NCBI GenBank assembly: GCA_041674405.1
Contig: JBAYVT010000001.1
Coordinates: forward strand, 120,001 to 152,000
Direction of reading: 5' to 3'
DNA from: Patescibacteria group bacterium
GTDB taxonomy: Bacteria > Patescibacteriota > UBA1384 > XYA2-FULL-43-10
Length of the DNA stretch: 32,000 nucleotides
Shown: positions 807 through 32,000 of the stretch, piece after piece
Numbering within the stretch: the stretch's first letter is position 1
Layout: the number at the start of each line of letters is the position of its first letter
Notes under the pieces: generated by a model
The model's input: only the letters and a program-made list of their open reading frames with translations
What the model was told of the DNA's origin: nothing
Database searches by the model: none
Made by a program: the position numbers and the translations under genes

Positions 807-1772
807 TTATCGTCCTCTGGCTCTTAGATCTTTGTATGTCAAAGTAAGAATTGAGGAAAAAAATCCGCTGGTAATTCCGGAAATAATCAAGAACACAACA
901 AGTGCAGCACATCCAAATATTATCCAAAAAGCTATTCCCAAGAAATGTGCGACAATATACAGTAAATATCCAATTCCAACAACAAATAATCCAAGAAGAG
1001 TGGTTACGATCGCGATGGCAATCCCAAGGCCGATGCAAAACCCAAAAACGATCAAATACGACAAAACAAAGTGCTGCCAATTTTTATTAAAATACTTACG
1101 TCCAACTGCAATTGCTTTGTCAGCAGGTAAATTTTCTAAAAACAAAGCTCTCTCAACAACCGGAAATATCAAGGCTAAATAAATAGTGTAAAAAATGAAC
1201 ACAAGGCCAAATAATATTCCAAAAACTATTGCCAGTGTCTTCATTTCGTATATCAAAAGCATGATGATTGGAATCAGAAGTACCAAAAAGGGAAGAATTA
1301 TAATAAAAAACCAAATTACCGAAAGGCTTAAGCGGCGCCAGAATAATTTGTGCCCAAGCAGCCACGAATCCTTCAATCTTAGATCTTTGCCATCATCAAG
1401 CTTTGGAATCGCTCGAATCAAGGCACCCCTTGAAGCTAGCGAGATATATATTAAGGCTGCTACTAAAACAATGGCCAATATCATAATCCCGACCCAAATA
1501 TAAATACTGTCAAAAATTTGCGGTCCCATAGAATCAACCAAGGCTTTACCGGCATCCTTAACTTCCGCTCTTGCCAAGCTGGCGATAGTTCCATTGTTGG
1601 GTACCAGCTCCTTTAATCTCTGGTAATCCGGTTGAGCGTTGTTATCGAATAAATAATTAATCTGGTTTGATCCGAAAGAAAATCCACCCGAAAGCAGACC
1701 AAGAAACCAGAGATATTTGTATTTTTTTATAAGGTTAAACGAGCGCTTTATAATACTTTCGAAATTTATCAT
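807..1772 (-). CDS. Polytopic integral membrane protein, function unknown
   Basis: This is a 321-aa ORF with multiple long hydrophobic segments (e.g. IWVGIMILAIVLVAALIYISL, LSVIWFFIIILPFLVLLIPIIMLLIY, FGFCIGLGIAIAIVTTLLGLFVVGIGYLLYIV). Its ATG overlaps the stop of an upstream mini-ORF (ATGA). Confidence 0.7.
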   Translation of the reverse strand: MINFESIIKRSFNLIKKYKYLWFLGLLSGGFSFGSNQINYLFDNNAQPDYQRLKELVPNNGTIASLARAEVKDAGKALVDSMGPQIFDSIYIWVGIMILAIVLVAALIYISLASRGALIRAIPKLDDGKDLRLKDSWLLGHKLFWRRLSLSVIWFFIIILPFLVLLIPIIMLLIYEMKTLAIVFGILFGLVFIFYTIYLALIFPVVERALFLENLPADKAIAVGRKYFNKNWQHFVLSYLIVFGFCIGLGIAIAIVTTLLGLFVVGIGYLLYIVAHFLGIAFWIIFGCAALVVFLIISGITSGFFSSILTLTYKDLRARGR

Positions 1773-8406: not shown

Positions 8407-9462
8407 TTAAATTATTAACATTGCATCACCATAAGAATAAAAACGATATTTTGAATTGATAGCAAATTCATACGATTTCTTTATATTTTTTTCTCCAGCA
8501 AAAGCCGACACGAGCATAAGTAGGGTTGACTTTGGTAAATGAAAATTGGTCACCAATGCATCAATACTTTTAAATTTATAGCCTGGATAAATAAAAATGT
8601 CGGTCCAACCGGAAATTGCTTCGCTTTGGCCTTTTACTTCGTGCTTTTCGCTGTTAATTTCAATTTGGCCGAACGCTGTTTCAAGCACTCGAGCCGTAGT
8701 CGTGCCCACTGCAATAATCCTGCCACCATTATTTTTTGTCTGTAGAATTTTTGAGATCAGTTTTTTACTAATCTCAAAATATTCGCTATGCATTTTGTGG
8801 TCTTTAATGTCATCAACTTTCACCGGTGCAAAAGTCCCCAGCCCAACATGAAGCAAAACAAATTCAACATCGACACCCTGTCCTTTGATCTGTTCGAGAA
8901 GTTCTTTTGTAAAATGTAGCCCGGCGGTTGGAGCTGCCACACTGCCTTTGCGTTTGGCAAATATTGTTTGGTAGTTGTCTCTATCGGGGGCCTCGCTTTT
9001 ACCTTTTCGAATATATGGCGGAATTGGAATAAGGCCAATTTTTTCTATTTCAGAGATAAACCGGTCTCCGCCCAAATTAAACCTCACGATATACATGTCA
9101 TTCTTTTTTTCTTGTACAATTGCTTCCAATTTGGAGCTTTCAAAAACTACGCGTTTTCCAGATTTTAGCCTTTTACCTAGTATCTCCCATTCAAAATTAT
9201 TAATTTGCTTATGTAGAAAAATTTCCACACTTCCGTGAGTCAAATAATTTTTACCGAGAAGCCTAGCCGGAATTACTTTAGTATTGTTCAAGACCAACAA
9301 ATCACCAGGTTTGAAAAATTTTGTAATATTTTTGAAAATATCAGATTGTATCTCGCCAGATTCCTTGTCCAGAACTAAAAGACGCGAGTGGTCCCGCGGC
9401 TCTGCCGGAGATTGTGCAATCAACTCCGAAGGCAACTCATAATCAAAGTCTGATAATTTCAT
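8407..9462 (-). CDS. queA: S-adenosylmethionine:tRNA ribosyltransferase-isomerase
   Basis: It shows MKLSDFDYELPSELIAQSPAEPRDHSRLLVL...VAAPTAGLHFT...GTTTARVLE...FHLPKSTLLMLVSAF, which is full-length QueA-like (351 aa). Confidence 0.93.
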   Translation of the reverse strand: MKLSDFDYELPSELIAQSPAEPRDHSRLLVLDKESGEIQSDIFKNITKFFKPGDLLVLNNTKVIPARLLGKNYLTHGSVEIFLHKQINNFEWEILGKRLKSGKRVVFESSKLEAIVQEKKNDMYIVRFNLGGDRFISEIEKIGLIPIPPYIRKGKSEAPDRDNYQTIFAKRKGSVAAPTAGLHFTKELLEQIKGQGVDVEFVLLHVGLGTFAPVKVDDIKDHKMHSEYFEISKKLISKILQTKNNGGRIIAVGTTTARVLETAFGQIEINSEKHEVKGQSEAISGWTDIFIYPGYKFKSIDALVTNFHLPKSTLLMLVSAFAGEKNIKKSYEFAINSKYRFYSYGDAMLII

Positions 9463-10695: not shown

Positions 10696-11295
10696 CTATT
10701 CCAATATTCCTTCTTCTGATGAATAAACACAACCGCAGTAATTTGGAATATGCATATTGTGATTCTTTGCGTAGTTTCTGCCGTTCCAATATCCTTTACG
10801 GAAATCTTGGTAGAAAAACAGCGGTCCAGAATTTCGTTCTAACTCAAGACCGATATTCCAAATTTCATCGTGATCTTTGTATGGAGATACCAACATCGTA
10901 CTCACAAAGTAATCCATTTTTAGCGCCTTAGCTTCGTTATATGTTCTAGTAAGCACTAATAAATTGCATAACTGGCATCTCTTAGTTTTCCAACGCTTTT
11001 TGTCGGTGATATATTTTATTGAATTTTTATCCTGATATGGCATAATTGGCTGAAAAAAATCCTGAATATCGTACTCTGGCGCAATTAATTTAATGCCATT
11101 TTCTTTGCAAAATTTTTCTACATCGGATTTTCGCCGGAGATATTCTGCCCTGCCATGAACTTGCGGATTATAGAAAAAGCCGGTAACTGCAAAATTCTCT
11201 TTTTTTAGTAGCTGATAAACATAGCTAAAGCAAGAAGAACAACAAATGTGAACCATGATCTTTTTTGACTTTTCAGTTTTTTTCTCCCCCATCAA
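10696..11295 (-). CDS. queH: Epoxyqueuosine reductase QueH (DUF208 family)
   Basis: It carries HICCSSC near the N-terminus, KRCQLC, and a C-terminal NYCGCVYSSEE. This is the Cys pattern I associate with DUF208/QueH. The true start may be the internal MVHICC Met. Confidence 0.82.
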   Translation of the reverse strand: MMGEKKTEKSKKIMVHICCSSCFSYVYQLLKKENFAVTGFFYNPQVHGRAEYLRRKSDVEKFCKENGIKLIAPEYDIQDFFQPIMPYQDKNSIKYITDKKRWKTKRCQLCNLLVLTRTYNEAKALKMDYFVSTMLVSPYKDHDEIWNIGLELERNSGPLFFYQDFRKGYWNGRNYAKNHNMHIPNYCGCVYSSEEGILE

Positions 11296-18703: not shown

Positions 18704-19825
18704 TTAACCCAAAAATTTATTATATGCAGCTAGGTAATTTTGCGCCATTTTAACAAGGCTAAATTCCTTGATGATCCTATCGCGTGGAGCAGATGGCTTT
18801 ATGAAAGACGCTTTTTTAAGAGCTTCTCGAATCTCATTTTTACCAAAACTACTAATCAAGATTCCGTTCTCGCCATTATTGATCACATCTTTAATACCCC
18901 CGATCGGTGACGCTATCGGAACAACCCCCGAAGACATCGCCTCCAGAAGGACCATGGGCATACCTTCTCTTTCAGTTGGCATAAATATCAACTTTGCGTT
19001 TTGATAAATCGGAATAAGCTCATTTGGAGTTTTGTACCCCAAATAATCCACGTTATCTTTTCCAAAATATTGTTTTTCTAATCTCTCAAAATATTTAATC
19101 TCATTCGGAGACGAACCTCTTGGCCCGATTATAGAAAGTTTTTGCCCGGATTCTTTTACGGATAATATCAACTCCTCAACTTTTTTTTCGGGCACAATTC
19201 TCCCAACAAATATCACTCCTTGTTTTTCAGAATTTGCCTGAAAATTATATTTGTCTGTATCAACCCCATTGGGAGTGTAGCCGAAATTTTTGATGCTATT
19301 TTTTTGGCAAAATTTCTCATTGTCGTGGCTTATGCAAGTCATACCAGATGATGATTTTGACAATTCACGATAACGATATTGATCATAAGCGTGAAAAATA
19401 CTAGCTAAATCACCATGGATCGTATACAAAACCGGAATCTTTGCAGCCAAGAATATAAAGAAATTTGTCCTCATATCATGAGAATTAATAAGATCAATTT
19501 TACCCGCCCTATAGGCTTTTAAGGCTTCATTGGCAGCAAAAAGATCGCTCTCTACCCTTCTTTGTGTATATTCAATCGGATTTTTTGTGTCTGGCCCGAA
19601 TTCCCTCCACGCAGATGGCAGATCCGCCCCGCTGCAAGTAATTTCATTACTGCTGTCCCTGGAAGTAAAAACCATATTCTCACAATTAAGATCGGACAAT
19701 TTTTTTGATAATTCGAACACTAGAGAGTTTGGTGCGCAAATAACGTCTGGGTCGGGTGGCACCGGTTTCGAGCTAAGAGGAATGATTCCAACTCTAATTT
19801 TTTTTGATCGCCTTTTGAACAACAT
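18704..19825 (-). CDS. GT4-family (GT-B) glycosyltransferase
   Basis: It shows LIFMPTEREGMPMVLLEAMSSGVVPIASPIGGIKDVINNGENGILI. There is a 1-nt gap to the next GT4 gene. Confidence 0.8.
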   Translation of the reverse strand: MLFKRRSKKIRVGIIPLSSKPVPPDPDVICAPNSLVFELSKKLSDLNCENMVFTSRDSSNEITCSGADLPSAWREFGPDTKNPIEYTQRRVESDLFAANEALKAYRAGKIDLINSHDMRTNFFIFLAAKIPVLYTIHGDLASIFHAYDQYRYRELSKSSSGMTCISHDNEKFCQKNSIKNFGYTPNGVDTDKYNFQANSEKQGVIFVGRIVPEKKVEELILSVKESGQKLSIIGPRGSSPNEIKYFERLEKQYFGKDNVDYLGYKTPNELIPIYQNAKLIFMPTEREGMPMVLLEAMSSGVVPIASPIGGIKDVINNGENGILISSFGKNEIREALKKASFIKPSAPRDRIIKEFSLVKMAQNYLAAYNKFLG

Positions 19826-26712: not shown

Positions 26713-27198
26713 ATGAAAAAACGAGATAAACAAATTGACGAGGTCAAGGAGCTGGAAGCCAAAGTCGCCGAACTCACAGCCGGTTGGCAGAGGACACAAG
26801 CCGATTTTATGAACTATAAAAAACAGGCTGCTGAAGACCGGGCAAAATTGATCGAATCTGCATGCTCTGCACTTATTTATGATATTCTGCCGGTCTTGGA
26901 TCACTTTCAACTCGCAGCTAGACATCTACCAAAAGATCTTGAAAATAATGACTGGGCAATCGGAATCAAGCATATAGAGAAACAATTCGAGACTATACTC
27001 TCCGAGAATGGTCTGACAAAAATCGAAACTGTCGGAAAACAATTTGATCCTCACTTACATGAAGCTGTGGAAGAGGTCGAATCCGACGAGCCAGAAGGAA
27101 CTATTGCCGAAGAAACTTTGGCAGGATATGCATTCAATGGATCTGTGCTGCGTGCAGCCAAAGTAAAAGTTGTAAAAAATATTCCACCAAAGAGCTAA
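26713..27198 (+). CDS. grpE: Nucleotide exchange factor GrpE
   Basis: It has a coiled-coil N-terminus. It then shows WQRTQADFMNYKKQ, ILPVLDHF and GKQFDPHLHEAV...GYAFNGSVLRAAKVKV. Confidence 0.93.
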   Translation: MKKRDKQIDEVKELEAKVAELTAGWQRTQADFMNYKKQAAEDRAKLIESACSALIYDILPVLDHFQLAARHLPKDLENNDWAIGIKHIEKQFETILSENGLTKIETVGKQFDPHLHEAVEEVESDEPEGTIAEETLAGYAFNGSVLRAAKVKVVKNIPPKS

Positions 27199-27208
27199 GA
27201 GCCAATAC

Positions 27209-27242
27209 CCGCAATGAGGTTAATTTTGCGGACATATTTTTT
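27209..27242 (+). terminator. Weak candidate terminator after grpE
   Basis: The stem is CCGCAA (27209-14) / TTGCGG (27226-31) with an 11-nt loop. After a 5-nt spacer there is a T6 run (27237-42). The stem is short and the spacer is atypical. Confidence 0.3.
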
Positions 27243-27317
27243 CGTGGTGAAGCTGATGAATAGGATATCAGCACCCATACGGGAAGTCAGCCGGTTCGAT
27301 TCCGGCCACCGCGACCA
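27243..27317 (+). ncRNA. tRNA-like RNA lacking an anticodon arm (degenerate tRNA or novel tRNA-like ncRNA)
   Basis: The acceptor stem is CGTGGTG (27243-49) / CACCGCG (27307-13): 7 bp, one U-G. It is followed by discriminator A and an encoded CCA (27315-17). The T arm is GCCGG-TTCGATT-CCGGC (27290-306). The D-like arm is GCTG(AT)...(AT)CAGC (27252-72) with GG in the loop. Only 16 nt lie between the D-like arm and the T arm (a CCC-ATAC-GGG mini-hairpin plus AAGTCA), where a 17-nt anticodon arm plus a variable loop is expected. Confidence 0.6.
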
Positions 27318-27375
27318 TTCGACTCGTTTCACTCGCTCATGGCAAGCCAAAACGAAAAGTGAATCCATTCGACTC
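27315..27375 (+). repeat. 11-nt direct repeat CCATTCGACTC (two copies, 50 nt apart); the first copy begins at the CCA end of the tRNA-like RNA
   Basis: There are exact copies at 27315-27325 and 27365-27375. GCTCATGG is also duplicated (27335-42, 27407-14). Confidence 0.8.
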
Positions 27376-27396
27376 TCTTTGCTCAGCCCAAATGGT

Positions 27397-27448
27397 CCCC
27401 TTCGGGGCTCATGGTAAACCGTCTGCCTCACCGATTATGGTGGGGCAG
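27397..27448 (+). other. Two stable hairpins in the non-coding spacer upstream of the RNHCP gene
   Basis: The first is CCCC-TTCG-GGGG (27397-27408, a UUCG tetraloop). The second is a 10-bp stem CTGCCTCACC / GGTGGGGCAG (27423-32 / 27439-48, one U-G) with loop GATTAT. Confidence 0.5.
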
Positions 27449-27473
27449 AATCCTAATAAGGTATAATGAAGCC

Positions 27474-27941
27474 ATGCAACAAAAAACGAAAAAAGATACT
27501 ATTGAAGAACGCAATGGCGGATTCGCCTGTGCGCATTGTAAGAAATGGGTAAATTTTTCTGACACGATCGGAACACATCATAGAAATCATTGCCCCTATT
27601 GCCTCTGGTCCCTGCACGTTGACGACAAAGTTTCCGGCGACCGCAAGGCAGACTGCCATAGTAGCATGGAGCCGATTGGATTGACGCTCAAAGAGGAAGG
27701 AATCGACAAATACGGGAACAAGAAACAGGGTGATGTGATGATTATTCATCAGTGTAAAAAATGTAGCAAAATTTCAATCAACCGCATCGCCGCCGATGAT
27801 GGCAATGAAAAAATATTAGATCTATTGAACTATAAAATTGATTCTAAAACAAAAAAAGATCTCAGGGACTCTTCTATTGTTGTACTCAATCAATCAAATT
27901 ATCCAGAAATTAAAACAGCTCTAATCGGTAAGAACATTTGA
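27474..27941 (+). CDS. RNHCP-domain zinc-ribbon protein, function unknown
   Basis: It shows CAHCKKWV...HHRNHCPYCLWSLHVD...IHQCKKCSKISINRIAADD; the literal RNHCP motif defines this Pfam family as I recall it. I place the start at ATG 27474 (MQQKTKK). The track's upstream extension (27411-27473) runs through the hairpins. Confidence 0.78.
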   Translation: MQQKTKKDTIEERNGGFACAHCKKWVNFSDTIGTHHRNHCPYCLWSLHVDDKVSGDRKADCHSSMEPIGLTLKEEGIDKYGNKKQGDVMIIHQCKKCSKISINRIAADDGNEKILDLLNYKIDSKTKKDLRDSSIVVLNQSNYPEIKTALIGKNI

Positions 27942-28541
27942 GGGAGTTTCTTCTAGGTGTTTGATGTCGTTAATAGTCTTTATGGAAATTTTTTTGTTTT
28001 CATCAATCAGTACGACACTAATGCTGGTATTGGCAATTTCTGTAAGCTTGCTGCCAATTTCTTGATCAATGTAACAAAATAAATTCTTGAGCCAAATCCC
28101 GTGTGTTACAGCTAAAATTGTTTTATCCGAATAATCATTTGCGATCATCTTAATAAATTTCTTGACACGTATAAGCACGTCAGTGTCATTTTCGCCTCCC
28201 TCTGGGCAAAAATCTTCCTTAGACAGGCCCGAACTTAATCTCGCCTCCTCACGCAGCACCGACAATTTACCTTCAAATATTCCGCTTCCTTTCTCTCGAA
28301 GCAAAGGCTCGTAAATAACCGGAAGGTCTGAGTGATATTTCAAAATTTCTTTAATAGTATCTTTGGTCCTTTTTAGATCGCTACAAAAAGCGATGTCAAA
28401 GTGTTGGTCTTTTAATCTCTCTCCAACTTTTCTCGCTTGTTCGGCTCCGATTTCGGAAAGTGGGTTATGGGAATGTCCCTGAACAATTTTTTGGTCATTG
28501 TAGCCAGTATGTCCATGGCGGACAAATACGAGATTAATCAT
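27921..28541 (-). CDS. Histidine phosphatase superfamily protein (PGAM/branch 1-like)
   Basis: It shows MINLVFVRHGHTGYN (RHG catalytic motif), a SDLKRTKDT region, and AVTHGIWLKN (second catalytic His). Its start overlaps the GNAT stop by 8 nt. Confidence 0.86.
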   Translation of the reverse strand: MINLVFVRHGHTGYNDQKIVQGHSHNPLSEIGAEQARKVGERLKDQHFDIAFCSDLKRTKDTIKEILKYHSDLPVIYEPLLREKGSGIFEGKLSVLREEARLSSGLSKEDFCPEGGENDTDVLIRVKKFIKMIANDYSDKTILAVTHGIWLKNLFCYIDQEIGSKLTEIANTSISVVLIDENKKISIKTINDIKHLEETPSNVLTD

Positions 28542-29007
28542 TGAGTTCCTTAATATATTTCACCAGCCAAAAGGTTTCGTCTGATTTGTTAGTAATTTTG
28601 CGATCGCTCAAAAATTTAAACCCGTTTTTTAGATAGAAGGCCCGTGTTCTATTATATGGTTCCCAATCTTCTTTGTCAGATAACGTTTCCACAGTAATCT
28701 TTTTGACTTCCAGATTTCGCGCTGCCTTCTCAACCTTTTCAAGTAATTGCCCACCTACTCCCTTACGATGAGAATTCAAGTTGACACCTAGCCAGGTAAT
28801 TTTAATATCCCCCTCCTCGGATGAAAAAGTAATAAATCCAACAATTTTGCCATCATTTTCGGCAGCAAAACCATGATGCAATTTTAGATCAAGCGGAATT
28901 TCGTTCGAGATTGCATAATCATCAAACCAACCGGGATTTAGGGATTTTACAACCTTCATTACTCCGTCATGGTCGATTAGCTCAATCGGCCTAATTTTTA
29001 TAGTCAT
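28534..29007 (-). CDS. GNAT family N-acetyltransferase
   Basis: It shows ...GFITFSSEE...WLGVNLNSHRKGVGGQLLEKVEKAARNLEVKKI...AFYLKNGF (the acetyl-CoA binding R-x-x-G-x-G motif). Its ATG (29007) directly follows the ileS TAA (29010-29008). Confidence 0.85.
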   Translation of the reverse strand: MTIKIRPIELIDHDGVMKVVKSLNPGWFDDYAISNEIPLDLKLHHGFAAENDGKIVGFITFSSEEGDIKITWLGVNLNSHRKGVGGQLLEKVEKAARNLEVKKITVETLSDKEDWEPYNRTRAFYLKNGFKFLSDRKITNKSDETFWLVKYIKELND

Positions 29008-32000
29008 TTATTTAATCCTCGAGATTCCGATCCAAATTTTCTCACCGTCGATACAGAATTCTTCTGAACCTTCCGGGTTTTCGATTTTTCCGTCAGTGCT
29101 TTCTTTCGCTAGTACTTCTTTGGCAATAATTTCCGACATTGATTTCATCACTTTTTTCAATACCTCTCCCGATGTAGCGTAATTTACAACTATCCTGTTC
29201 TCAACTTCAAACCCGGACTTTTTGCGTAGCGATTGGATGTTGCGGATGAGTTCCCTGGCAACACCTTCGGTTTTTAATTCGTCAGTTAATACCGTATCAA
29301 GCTCGACGCCTGTCTCCCCTACTCCGGAATTCTTATCTCCTTCGTCAATATGAATATCTCGTGCGTCGACATAAACTACTTTTTTCACATTTACTTCTTC
29401 AGCAATGATTGTTTCCAAATCTTCAGACAATTTTTTACCGGAATATTTTAGAAGAGCTAAAGGCTGGCGAACTTTTATTCCCGCTTCCGATCTTTTGGCT
29501 AAGCCAGCTTCAACAATCTGCCGTGTTTCTGCCATCTCATCCAGAACAGAAAGATCAAATTCTTCCGGTGCGGGGAAATCGGCCAAGTGTACCGATTCCG
29601 GATCACTTTCTTGCTTTAGGCCCTGATACACGGTTTCGGCGAACATCGGAGTAAACGGCGCCAAGAGTTTCGATAAGCCGATCAAAACTTCATACAAAGT
29701 ATGATATGCCGATTCTTTATCGCTGTCAGACTCCGATTTCCAAAATCTGCGGCGTGAGCGGCGGACATACCAAGTAGAAAGTTCGTTTATAAAATCAAGA
29801 ATCGTATTTGCCGGTCTGTAGGTATCATAGTTATCCAATGATTCGGTGATGGTTTCGGTAAGTTCGTTAAACTTCGCAAGGATCCATTTGTCTAGAATGT
29901 TTGTAGCTTCTGTTTTTCCGCTCGGCTTCCAACCGTCGATTGATGCGTACATAGAAAAGAATGAATAAACATTCCAAAGCGTGATAAATAGGTTGCGGGA
30001 AACAGACAAAACTTCTTTTTCTGAAAAAAGCTTCGGCTCACCGGGCTGATTCACAGAATAAAGGAAGAAGCGGACGACATCGGCGCCAACTTTCTCAAAT
30101 TCAGCCATCGGCTCGACAATGTTTCCCTTCGACTTCGACATTTTTTGCCCTTTTTCGTCTAGAATATGTCCTGTCGAGATAACATTTTTAAAACAAGAAT
30201 TATTTTTTACAATCGTCGAGATCGCGAGAAGCGTGTAAAACCAGCCTCGGGTTTGATCGATCGCTTCGCAAATGAAATCAGCCGGGTACTGCTCAGCAAA
30301 GAGTTCGCTGTTTTCGAATGGATAGTGATATTGGGCGTATGGCATGGAGCCGGAATCGAACCAGACATCCATCACTTCTGGAGTTCGTTTCATCGTTCCG
30401 CCGCATTTGCAGGTGAATTCAACCTCATCAACAAATGGTTTGTGAGGATCGAAGGCAGTACCGTCAGAATTTAGATAAAATTTATGAGATAATTCATGAT
30501 CAGGGCGTTCGTGTTGGAAGTATCCAGAATAATCCAAGTTCCCTAAAATCATGTTCAATGCACCATTAATGGCCCCGTGTGCAACAATAACGATTGTCTT
30601 ACCAGGATATTCTTTTCCAATCTTGGCTAAAAATTCTTTGACCCTTTCTACAACATCAGCTCTCGTTTCCCCCGTGGTGCCAAGCTTAAAATTAAATCTT
30701 TGTTCAGGAATTTTCTCAGTCACCAAATAATCTTGAAAATCTTTCCTGTCAAGTCTTTGTTCGGGTGTAAGCTCATTCCATTCGCCGGAGTCCAGCTCAA
30801 TGATTCTGTCGTCGAATATCAATTCCGCATCTACATGTTTCTTAACGATTTCTGCGGATTGCTTTGCTCTCAACACCGGAGAAGATATTATTATGTCAAC
30901 TTTGTCCTTTATTTTTTTTGCGGTTGTTTCCACCTGAGTCACACCCTTCTCTGTAAGAGGCCATTTATCAAGCGCTTTTGAATCAATATCAAGAATGTTT
31001 CTCTCCGTTTCACCGTGTCGGACAAAGATCAATTTCGTTACCTTAGTATTGCTCTCGTTGAAATCCATAAAATTGCCAACGACTTTTTTCTCGTCACACT
31101 TGTCGCAAGTCCAGACCGGGAGCGGCGTCCCCCAATATCTGTCACGGGAAATTGCCCAGTCATTGATATTTTCGAGCCAATTGCCAAAACGGCCGTGCTT
31201 TAAGTAGGCTGGGTTCCAGTTGATTGTCTCATTATTTTCAAGAAGCTCATCTCGAAGTTTCGACATCGCGATATACCAAGAATCCTTGGCAAAGTAGAGA
31301 AGCGGTGAGTCACAACGCCAGCAGAACGGATAATCATGGGCGAACATCTCTTTTTTAAATAATATTCCACGTTTTTCAAGATCGAGTTTCACTTCTTTGT
31401 CGGCGTCTTTGACAAAGCTTCCTTTGCCAGCGCCGGCAAGCTCCGTCCCCTTTTCATCAACGGTCTTTAAAACCTTGATGCCGTTCTTGCGAAAACCAAA
31501 TTCGTAATCATCCTCACCAAATGCCGGGGCAATGTGGACGATGCCGGTGCCGTCTGAATCGGTGACAAAATCGGCGACAATCAGCTTGTAAACTTTCTCT
31601 CCACCTTCAGAAAATTTATCTCCGTCCGGATAAATCGCTTCGTAATCCGGTTTGTCGGTGAAAGATGGGGCAGCAATTTCCGAACCGGTCAGCTCTTTAA
31701 TGACATTTGCACCAGGCAAAACGGCATCGAGACGGCTTTGCGCAAGTATATACTTCTCTCCGTCTTTTTCTGCCAAAACGTATTTGATATTCGGGCCAAA
31801 TGCTAGAGCGGCGTTGCCTGCGAGCGTCCAAGGCGTTGTCGTCCAGACAAGAAAATACGCATCTTCATGATTTGATTTAACCTTGATATAGACTGATTCC
31901 TCTTCAACATTCTTGTATCCCTGGGCAACCTCATGAGAAGATAACGCCGTACCGCAGCGCGGGCAATATGGCACGACTTTGTGGCCCCTGTAAAGCAAAC
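29008..32000 (-). CDS. ileS: Isoleucine--tRNA ligase, type 2 (5' end outside window), carrying an inserted domain
   Basis: It shows LYRGHKVVPYCPRCGTALSSHEV. The editing-domain motifs are WTTTPWTLAGNAA and GTGIVHIAPAFGEDDYE. Further motifs are FCWRCDSPL, WAISRDRYWGTPLPVW, DQTRGWFYTL and KMSKSKGN. The 'M' at 31998 in the ORF track is an internal TTG Leu (..GLLYRG..), so the gene continues beyond nt 32000. Confidence 0.95.
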   Translation of the reverse strand, partial: LLYRGHKVVPYCPRCGTALSSHEVAQGYKNVEEESVYIKVKSNHEDAYFLVWTTTPWTLAGNAALAFGPNIKYVLAEKDGEKYILAQSRLDAVLPGANVIKELTGSEIAAPSFTDKPDYEAIYPDGDKFSEGGEKVYKLIVADFVTDSDGTGIVHIAPAFGEDDYEFGFRKNGIKVLKTVDEKGTELAGAGKGSFVKDADKEVKLDLEKRGILFKKEMFAHDYPFCWRCDSPLLYFAKDSWYIAMSKLRDELLENNETINWNPAYLKHGRFGNWLENINDWAISRDRYWGTPLPVWTCDKCDEKKVVGNFMDFNESNTKVTKLIFVRHGETERNILDIDSKALDKWPLTEKGVTQVETTAKKIKDKVDIIISSPVLRAKQSAEIVKKHVDAELIFDDRIIELDSGEWNELTPEQRLDRKDFQDYLVTEKIPEQRFNFKLGTTGETRADVVERVKEFLAKIGKEYPGKTIVIVAHGAINGALNMILGNLDYSGYFQHERPDHELSHKFYLNSDGTAFDPHKPFVDEVEFTCKCGGTMKRTPEVMDVWFDSGSMPYAQYHYPFENSELFAEQYPADFICEAIDQTRGWFYTLLAISTIVKNNSCFKNVISTGHILDEKGQKMSKSKGNIVEPMAEFEKVGADVVRFFLYSVNQPGEPKLFSEKEVLSVSRNLFITLWNVYSFFSMYASIDGWKPSGKTEATNILDKWILAKFNELTETITESLDNYDTYRPANTILDFINELSTWYVRRSRRRFWKSESDSDKESAYHTLYEVLIGLSKLLAPFTPMFAETVYQGLKQESDPESVHLADFPAPEEFDLSVLDEMAETRQIVEAGLAKRSEAGIKVRQPLALLKYSGKKLSEDLETIIAEEVNVKKVVYVDARDIHIDEGDKNSGVGETGVELDTVLTDELKTEGVARELIRNIQSLRKKSGFEVENRIVVNYATSGEVLKKVMKSMSEIIAKEVLAKESTDGKIENPEGSEEFCIDGEKIWIGISRIK
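30454..31047 (-). other. Histidine-phosphatase domain inserted within IleRS (residues ~318-515 of the listed ORF)
   Basis: The segment VTKLIFVRHGETERN...SSPVLRAKQSAE...IVIVAHGAINGALN lies between the knuckle WTCDKCDE and the motif DPHKPFVDEVEFTCKCGGTMKRTPEVMDVWFDSG. It is in frame and has no stops. Confidence 0.8.

Follow-up and report, generated by a model that had tools for sequence, protein, structure and literature searches.

A conserved tRNA-like RNA without an anticodon arm downstream of grpE in a patescibacterial genome

Introduction

Elements that keep the upper half of a tRNA are already known from organelles (t-elements), from eukaryotic nuclei (mascRNA) and as modules within larger bacterial RNAs (tmRNA and YrlA). 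Here we describe a 75-nucleotide (nt) element at positions 27243–27317 (plus strand) of a stretch of 32,000 nt from a Patescibacteria group bacterium (contig JBAYVT010000001.1, positions 120,001–152,000; hereafter the 32-kb window), which has the acceptor stem, T arm and encoded CCA of a tRNA and a mini-hairpin where the anticodon arm should be. It lies directly after the terminator-like hairpin of grpE. We think it likely that this is a selected, non-decoding tRNA-like RNA, taking together a role in cis, in processing of the transcript that contains it, and a role in trans once released. In the literature searched, we found no account of a bacterial version that is free-standing, conserved and 75 nt long, with an encoded CCA and a capped anticodon stub.

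In plant mitochondria, t-elements are cut by RNase P and RNase Z, receive a CCA tail and undergo base modification, yet they are not aminoacylated (PMC1920247, PMC11658184). Like the element described here, they are derived from tRNA genes, stand at the end of a protein-coding transcript, keep the features used by maturation enzymes and do not decode. T-elements are, however, organellar and have no encoded CCA, whereas the present element is bacterial and encodes it; the element also differs in its capped 3–4-base-pair (bp) stub, its 6-bp D stem and the terminator directly upstream, and its processing is only predicted. The mascRNA and MEN-beta RNAs of MALAT1 and NEAT1 resemble it in their small tRNA-like fold, shrunken anticodon arm and CCA end, and the RNase P cut on the 5′ side of mascRNA makes the 3′ end of the upstream RNA. 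They come from eukaryotic nuclear long non-coding RNAs, though, receive their CCA after transcription and have no sequence relationship to the element.

Among bacterial RNAs, the tRNA-like domain of tmRNA is likewise an upper-half tRNA (acceptor, T arm and CCA) with no anticodon, and tmRNA is processed by RNase P. It differs from the element in its length of ~350 nt, in acceptor strands placed at its two ends, in its pseudoknots and tag reading frame, and in its G3:U70 alanine identity. RNase P cleaves the YrlA of Mycobacterium smegmatis, which also gains a CCA tail (PMC4201824). It too is a bacterial tRNA-mimic module, with acceptor-like, D and T arms, but one set inside a longer RNA with a Ro/Rsr-binding helix (GNCGAAN0-1G) and encoded beside rsr. 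Bacterial tRNA-Pro, finally, shares with the element C1:G72, A73, an encoded CCA, G10-C25, C11-G24 and the GG of the D-loop; the element departs from it in having no anticodon stem-loop, A8 for U8, a 6-bp D stem and no promoter, and in scoring below all tRNA thresholds.

If our reading is right, a redundant tRNA gene has been re-used, rather than lost, in a streamlined genome of the candidate phyla radiation (CPR), and the element would be a natural minimal substrate with which to probe acceptance by RNase P, CCA-adding enzyme, EF-Tu and synthetases.

Results

A four-way junction with a stub in place of the anticodon arm

The element reads CGTGGTG-AA-GCTGAT(G)...(T)ATCAGC-A-CCC-ATAC-GGG-AAGTCA-GCCGG-TTCGATT-CCGGC-CACCGCG-A-CCA, and its minimum free energy (MFE) fold is a four-way junction (−30.8 kcal/mol, 71% of the ensemble; parts in Table 1) that is more stable than expected from dinucleotide shuffles (z = −3.8; 1/200 shuffles as stable). 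An earlier note, made by eye from the sequence, had listed an acceptor stem with one U-G pair, a T arm, a D-like hairpin of 6–7 bp, a GG dinucleotide, a stub and a discriminator A with CCA; all of these lie where it had placed them, and the MFE fold is the junction that it had described, with the upper half of a tRNA retained and the anticodon arm absent.

That upper half is canonical, comprising a 7-bp acceptor stem (with the U-G at 3:70), a discriminator, a 5-bp T arm and a T-loop of the form UUCRANN; among the copies found in relatives (below), the one at locus L005 deviates, with a 4-bp T stem and a G.A mismatch. Core tertiary features of tRNA are missing: every copy has A8, and the D-like stem, with 6 bp rather than 4, includes a paired A14. 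The anticodon arm is a 3–4-bp stem with a 4-nt loop in 4/4 copies, with no 5-bp stem and no 7-nt loop with U33.

Standard tRNA and RNA-family finders miss the element, which serves as a warning for annotation. ARAGORN found 0 tRNA or tmRNA genes across the 32-kb window, and Rfam found nothing there at gathering thresholds; with permissive Rfam settings, the top tRNA-clan match was to tRNA-Sec at 18.2 bits (cut-off 47). Neither program recognized a tRNA in the three other copies, while genuine tRNAs in related loci scored 56–66 bits in the tool that leaves the element copies uncalled. The earlier note had staked its claim on there being no overlooked cloverleaf with a 7-nt anticodon loop, and these searches bear it out. 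No E. coli tRNA resembles the element.

The topology can be redrawn as an aberrant decoding tRNA that lacks a D arm, in which the long hairpin is the anticodon arm and the stub a variable arm. The weak alignment to tRNA-Sec fits such a drawing, as does the window copy, whose long-hairpin loop can be drawn with 7 nt (AAUAGGA). Across the four copies, though, that loop has 9, 8, 10 and 12 nt, with no conserved fixed triplet and no U33, and both ARAGORN and Rfam reject all of them. The variation in loop length effectively refutes this alternative, to which we give almost no credence.

Distribution and conservation among relatives

Contigs of relatives were fetched through homologues of RNHCP and GrpE. 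The spacer is 100% identical in four assemblies from different samples, which rules out an assembly artefact and adds no evolutionary information. Counting all copies, the element is present in the assemblies SRR6484325, ERZ27247358, JGI 3300037067, SRR22315508, ERZ27297473/ERR6862853, SRR30681577 and SRR30681611. Three further divergent lineages carry the same architecture at the same site, directly after the grpE terminator, in the loci L005, L008 and L023, and each of the four copies folds alone into the same four-way junction (MFE), that of L005 only weakly (z = −1.3 versus shuffles).

The element is much better conserved than its surroundings. Among the four carrier lineages, GrpE proteins are 68–75% identical, four-fold degenerate sites of grpE are at 23–39% identity (saturated) and the 58 nt 3′ of the element are at 41–50%, close to what chance gives in a global alignment; identity of the element is 78–90%. 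Three lineages share its first 19 nt (CGTGGTGAAGCTGATGAAT, CGUGGUGAAGCUGAUGAAU) without a difference, and the fourth agrees at 18/19 of them. Given this contrast between the element and both the saturated four-fold sites and the adjacent spacer, a neutrally decaying pseudogene, which the earlier note had entertained, is very unlikely. A functional tRNA mimic, its other suggestion, or a processing element reads better against this conservation.

Where the copies differ also follows the structure: 15/36 unpaired columns vary versus 11/44 paired ones, and unpaired variation is found in the distal D-like loop (8–12 nt, with GG in 3/4 copies), in the loop of the stub (AUAC, AUCC, AACG, GAAA) and, within the T-loop, at positions 59–60 only. 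The D-like stem is unchanged in three copies, A73 and CCA are invariant, and positions 68–70 differ. The stub of the window corresponds to CCCC-AUCC-GGGG in L005, UCCC-AACG-GGGA in L008 and UCC-GAAA-GGA in L023, so that two of its pairs are C-G in some copies and U-A in others, a compensatory change; RNAalifold counts one double-sided change. In L005, the T stem has lost 1 nt on each strand, leaving 4 bp. A structure-guided alignment has standard pairs in 82/85 cells, and in a MAFFT alignment 95% of cells pair, versus 26–55% when the partners are slid. Selection on RNA structure is thus likely rather than statistically proven.

In L007, L024 and L025, both the element and the whole spacer are absent. 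GrpE in these sister lineages is slightly longer (168–170 amino acids), and the end of its gene runs ~11 nt into the start of RNHCP (L007 617–631, L024 655–669 and L025 ~1185–1195). In a neighbour-joining tree of GrpE, carriers are paraphyletic to the lineages without the element, for which the simplest history, as judged from these sequences, is an old element later deleted at least once.

The element is dispensable, since sister lineages with overlapping grpE and RNHCP have lost it, and it is not tied to RNHCP or to ileS. The earlier note had stressed a neighbourhood centred on tRNA functions. The distances that it gave are right (the RNHCP start codon at 27474 is 156 nt downstream and the stop side of ileS at 29008 is 1.7 kb away), but the tie does not hold: the sister lineages have grpE–RNHCP–His_Phos–GNAT–ileS without the element, and downstream of the L023 copy the sequence is different. 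A functional link to the ileS/His_Phos/GNAT operon was rejected because that operon is found both with and without the element. An RNHCP leader or riboswitch was rejected as well, RNHCP apparently having its own −10 box by its ATG and being present without the element in sister lineages.

Origin in a tRNA slot after grpE

The closest named relatives of the GrpE protein are from Candidatus Berkelbacteria, and in the Berkelbacteria loci (L026–L035), which are more distantly related than the other carriers and the sister lineages, the order is grpE, terminator, a TTGACA-17-TAGATT promoter, tRNA-Pro(CGG), a 165-nt spacer, tRNA-Ile(GAU) and dnaK. A locus from another CPR lineage (L039) has grpE, a promoter, tRNA-Thr(CGU) and a further tRNA. 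Because tRNA genes follow grpE in both lineages, a ‘tRNA slot’ at this site is ancestral, with a varying occupant.

Acceptor stem and discriminator of the element match Berkelbacteria tRNA-Pro at 12–14/15 positions (the 5′ strand of L023, CGGGGTG, is identical), tRNA-Thr at 6–8/15 and tRNA-Ile at 4–6/15. In bacteria, tRNA-Pro is marked at its acceptor end by C1:G72 together with A73. The T arm and total identity do not discriminate between candidate parents, nor does our covariance model R1, which scores tRNA-Pro, tRNA-Thr and tRNA-Ile alike (28–32 bits each); the assignment of a parent therefore rests on the acceptor stem and synteny. From these sequence comparisons, an origin from tRNA-Pro is probable. 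In three copies, CGGGA stands before AGUC; we suggest, no more than tentatively, that it could be what stayed of C34-G35-G36-G37-A38 when the 3′ strand of the anticodon stem was lost.

The 3′ half had looked to the earlier note like that of a Met/initiator tRNA. Initiators have a C1×A72 mismatch, A11:U24 and three anticodon-stem G:C pairs with the G strand 5′. The element instead has C1 paired with G72, C11:G24 in its D stem (elongator-type) and CCC on the 5′ strand of the stub, and its acceptor stem and discriminator match the initiator at 9–11/15, the comparison having been made with the E. coli rather than a CPR sequence. An initiator origin is accordingly improbable in our judgement. The ancestor was most likely an elongator tRNA, probably tRNA-Pro, in the slot after grpE; it would have lost its own promoter and anticodon arm and retained the features read by the tRNA maturation machinery.

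Some further observations were made at these loci. In both lineages examined, the tRNA gene that comes first after grpE encodes a C34 isoacceptor (Pro-CGG and Thr-CGU), and the second tRNA of L039 (2932–3080) is cut by the contig end. The Berkelbacteria spacer between tRNA-Pro and tRNA-Ile (L026 3706–3870, the same in L027–L035) is GC-rich and unusually long for a tRNA operon; searching Rfam with it returned nothing, even at E ≤ 1. We rejected descent of the spacer 3′ of the element from the tRNA-Ile of Berkelbacteria or from its spacer, as local alignments were no better than shuffles.

A candidate processing RNA at the end of the grpE transcript

In all four lineages, the element is a tRNA-derived fold at the end of another transcript unit, starting 0–9 nt after the T-run of grpE: a GC hairpin with T6–7 precedes the copies in L005, L008 and L023 as it does in the window, and position −1 is T (U) in 4/4 copies. 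A scan of the window detected no promoter-like site just 5′ of the element, which abuts the T-run and leaves no room for one; the real tRNA-Pro of Berkelbacteria, in contrast, has TTGACA-17-TAGATT upstream. A strict consensus terminator scan of the window did not call the grpE hairpin, which is separated from its T-run by a gap of 5 nt, and this makes read-through plausible. Features predicted to be recognized by RNase P and CCA-adding enzyme are kept (7-bp acceptor stem, U at −1, RCCA end, T-loop and, in 3/4 copies, the D-like GG). Decoding is excluded by the lack of an anticodon.

Of the readings considered, we favour excision of the element by RNase P from grpE read-through transcripts, in the manner of t-elements and mascRNA; this is quite possible, if short of probable. 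Transcription past a weak terminator would yield a grpE transcript that contains the element, which would fold into an L-shape with its lower limb stubbed. RNase P would then cut at C27243, right after the U-tract of the terminator. The read-through grpE mRNA would thereby gain the same hairpin-protected 3′ end as terminated ones, with the downstream RNA severed, and a stable, CCA-ended 75-nt RNA, unable to read a codon, would be freed.

Several points weigh against a selected RNA of this kind. The selection analysis depends on four independent metagenomic sequences, most of whose stem pairs are invariant, and in this sample (n = 4) shuffle-based covariation measures gave no signal; the RNAalifold covariation term is +0.94 kcal/mol, with no stabilizing contribution. 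Of the alignment with relatives that the earlier note had proposed, the conserved odd architecture at saturated neutral divergence came out as a functional element would have it, whereas covariation in the stems is weak, with no formal signal. Pairing fails at three places: L023 has G3.G70 and, in its D-like stem, a U.U mismatch, and L005 has G5.A68. The weak fold of the L005 copy could mean that it is decaying. The element is also rare: degenerate pattern scans of 185,579 GTDB species genomes (one per species) and of JGI metagenomes returned chance matches only, which confines it to a small clade. The terminator upstream seems to make an RNase P ‘back-up’ partly redundant and to limit expression, and the invariant 19-nt 5′ half suggests sequence-specific recognition, for which pure processing has no need.

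The broken pairs and the weakened L005 T stem are also what one might see in a non-functional tRNA relic whose copies remain similar through slow decay, constraint at the DNA level or hitch-hiking. The anticodon arm and promoter are lost, the element is wholly deleted in some lineages, and its parent may itself have been expendable, since tRNA-Pro(CGG) is a redundant C34 isoacceptor that is easy to lose. A relic does not, however, account for identity so far above that of four-fold sites and spacer, for intact CCA, A73 and T-loop in all copies, or for the conservation of parts that are new relative to a tRNA, namely the long D-like stem and the capped stub, the latter through compensatory changes. 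We regard a relic as decidedly improbable.

The conserved 5′ half fits better with a third possibility, that the released 75-nt RNA, matured like a tRNA, is itself functional in trans as a tRNA mimic, either charged through its acceptor identity (C1:G72 and A73) and used outside the ribosome, or titrating a protein that binds tRNAs, for example a modification enzyme, a toxin or EF-Tu. In its favour, CGUGGUGAAGCUGAUGAAU is conserved beyond structural need, C1:G72, A73 and CCA are invariant, and the elbow is retained (the T-loop, with GG in 3/4 copies). There are precedents in tmRNA, in YrlA and in the tRNA-Other of Bacillus cereus, as cited in PMC5389517. Abundance would probably be low, though, with no promoter of its own and a terminator directly 5′, and sister lineages have lost the element without a visible replacement.

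Charging, too, faces obstacles with several synthetases. Pair 3:70 is U.G, U-A or G.G and never G3:U70, which argues against alanyl-tRNA synthetase; U at −1 and A73 argue against the histidyl enzyme, and the lack of a long variable arm against the seryl enzyme. Bacterial prolyl-tRNA synthetase depends strongly on the anticodon determinants G35/G36, and these are gone. The similar t-elements of plants are not aminoacylated (PMC11658184). On balance, we think a function in trans unlikely, and somewhat more so its boldest form, in which the element would be the first stand-alone bacterial ‘half-tRNA’ small RNA made from a redundant tRNA-Pro, serving in CPR as a charged donor outside the ribosome or as a decoy for an enzyme or toxin.

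Possible integration at the 3′ end of the element

The element might instead be kept or spread as a target or by-product of mobile-element integration; it would then be a tRNA-type attachment site, with copies that are alike because integrating elements renew the 3′ part. At one locus (L009 1–61), unrelated DNA running up to a terminator hairpin gives way to just the 3′ part of the element (GTTCGATTCCGGACACCGCGACCA; the 3′ 23 nt), after which come the usual spacer and RNHCP. At L023 1217–1349 (both loci are from sample SRR30681611), grpE and a complete element are succeeded by unrelated DNA. Taken together, the two resemble opposite ends of one insertion into the 3′ end of the element, as expected where DNA has entered the 3′ end of a tRNA gene. 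In the window and in L008, direct repeats beginning with the CCA of the element are also found 3′ of it. It may well be that integration into the element occurred in L009/L023.

As an explanation of the element itself, an attachment site is nonetheless very improbable. It leaves the conservation of this sequence by the host unexplained, and conservation is highest in the 5′ half, a part that integration would not supply; in the window, the element is full length with that half conserved, and is not a partial 3′ copy. There are no integrase or mobile genes in the 32-kb window or the 20-kb loci, and no match to the 3′ or 5′ part among 2.9 million viral contigs.

Neighbourhood of the element

The element lies within the 275-nt spacer between grpE and an RNHCP-domain gene (27474–27941), an arrangement of grpE then element that is repeated in L005, L008 and L023. 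Downstream, on the opposite strand, are genes for a histidine phosphatase and a GNAT protein, and an ileS with an inserted histidine-phosphatase domain. In public records, these proteins carry the label Patescibacteria.

Table 1 Features of the element and its surroundings, in window coordinates, and copies of the element in other loci, in the coordinates of each locus.
Feature	Positions	Strand	Basis or remark
grpE	26713–27198	+	Pfam GrpE, E = 6.7e-42; gene calls in identical contigs; element always just 3′ of grpE
Terminator-like grpE hairpin CCGCAA/TTGCGG, then ACATA + T6	27209–27242	+	Read from sequence; T-run ends at element position −1
Acceptor stem, 5′ strand CGUGGUG, C1	27243–27249	+	MFE fold; L005 and L008 identical, L023 CGGGGUG
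Connector A8 A9	27250–27251	+	Same in 4/4 copies; real tRNAs have U8
D-like arm GCUGAU/AUCAGC, 6 bp, G-U as seventh; GG in loop	27252–27272	+	Folds
Mini-hairpin CCC-AUAC-GGG in place of anticodon arm	27274–27283	+	Folds
Variable-region linker AAGUCA	27284–27289	+	AGUCA same in all copies
T arm GCCGG-UUCGAUU-CCGGC, canonical T-loop	27290–27306	+	Fold and alignment of copies
Acceptor stem, 3′ strand CACCGCG, discriminator A, encoded CCA	27307–27317	+	Sequence, fold and alignment
Direct repeats from the CCA of the element: CCATTCGACTC.. at 27315 and 27365; GCTCATGGYAARCC at 27335 and 27407	27315–27420	+	Repeat finding, DNA search
11-bp hairpin GUCUGCCUCACC / GGUGGGGCAGA	27421–27449	+	Fold centroid
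TATAAT (27462–27467), 6 nt before RNHCP ATG (27474)	27462–27476	+	Sequence
Element copy, L005 (and L006)	884–955		
Element copy, L008	691–767		
Element copy, L023	1217–1291		

Between the element and RNHCP, a stable CCCC-UUCG-GGGG hairpin is predicted by folding to lie between the downstream direct repeats. The repeats span 27315–27334/27365–27384 and 27335–27348/27407–27420 in the window and 776–861 in L008; repeat-like units occur in L008 (3 copies) and in L009, but not in L005. The GCTCRTGGYARRCC units within them resemble the 5′ start of the element (TCGTGGTGAA versus TCGTGGTAAA), and the repeats are reminiscent of ‘tRNA-linked repeats’ or of integration scars.

The second, strong hairpin that follows, just 5′ of the RNHCP −10 box, is kept in position with a changed sequence in L005 (974–1003), L008 (~897–925) and L009 (~116–142). 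Across the loci, such hairpins have 8–13 bp and no T-run after them, and the one in the window probably ends upstream transcripts, as a terminator without a U-tract, or serves as an operator. TTGGTATAAT, then 6–7 nt, then ATG is kept in L005 (~1016–1031), L008 (~940–955) and L009 (~158–171), and no Shine–Dalgarno sequence precedes the RNHCP start. On sequence grounds, this suggests that RNHCP has an independent, probably leaderless transcript.

Other identities considered

Several other identities were tried for the element and rejected. A tmRNA (RF00023) was found by neither ARAGORN nor Rfam, and the acceptor stem closes within 75 nt, with a 3:70 pair of U.G, U-A or G.G. YrlA or another bacterial Y RNA gave no Rfam match at E ≤ 10; the 75 nt contain no GNCGAAN0-1G motif or helix, and there is no TROVE/rsr neighbour. 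A small open reading frame over the element (27214–27417, plus strand, or 27195–27431, minus strand) does not go with copy lengths of 75, 72, 77 and 75 nt, and a conserved peptide does not go with the common TCAGC, which is in different frames in the window and L008.

An RNA from the minus strand was set aside because only the plus strand has the G-U pairs, the UUCGA of the T-loop and the CCA, and pairing there holds in 82/85 cells versus 79/85 on the minus strand; a minus-strand match to Plastid-ycf2 (23 bits, cut-off 65.7) is a mirror-image artefact. The CUGAUGA in the D-like stem could recall a hammerhead or kink-turn, but it occurs without the GAAA/helix III arrangement, in a stem that by eye is fully Watson–Crick. 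A phage or plasmid origin was likewise rejected: phage tRNAs matched over short T-arm stretches only, and viral contigs yielded no match.

Other genes in and near the window

The queuosine tRNA-modification genes queA and queH, at 8407–9462 and 10696–11295 of the window (both minus strand), have housekeeping roles and show no evident connection with the element. The ileS gene (window 29008–31998, minus strand; full gene at L001 12296–15817) encodes a 1173-amino-acid isoleucyl-tRNA synthetase with His_Phos_1 inserted between the halves of its catalytic core. Its operon continues with a GNAT acetyltransferase and a stand-alone His_Phos_1 protein (window 28534–29007 and 27921–28541, both minus strand), and is conserved in relatives. 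At 19398–20486 of L001/L002, ~4 kb past the window end, is a 1145-amino-acid class I synthetase resembling leucyl-tRNA synthetase with an inserted NUDIX domain, which lies near a separate NUDIX gene and is the second synthetase in this genome with a foreign hydrolase insert.

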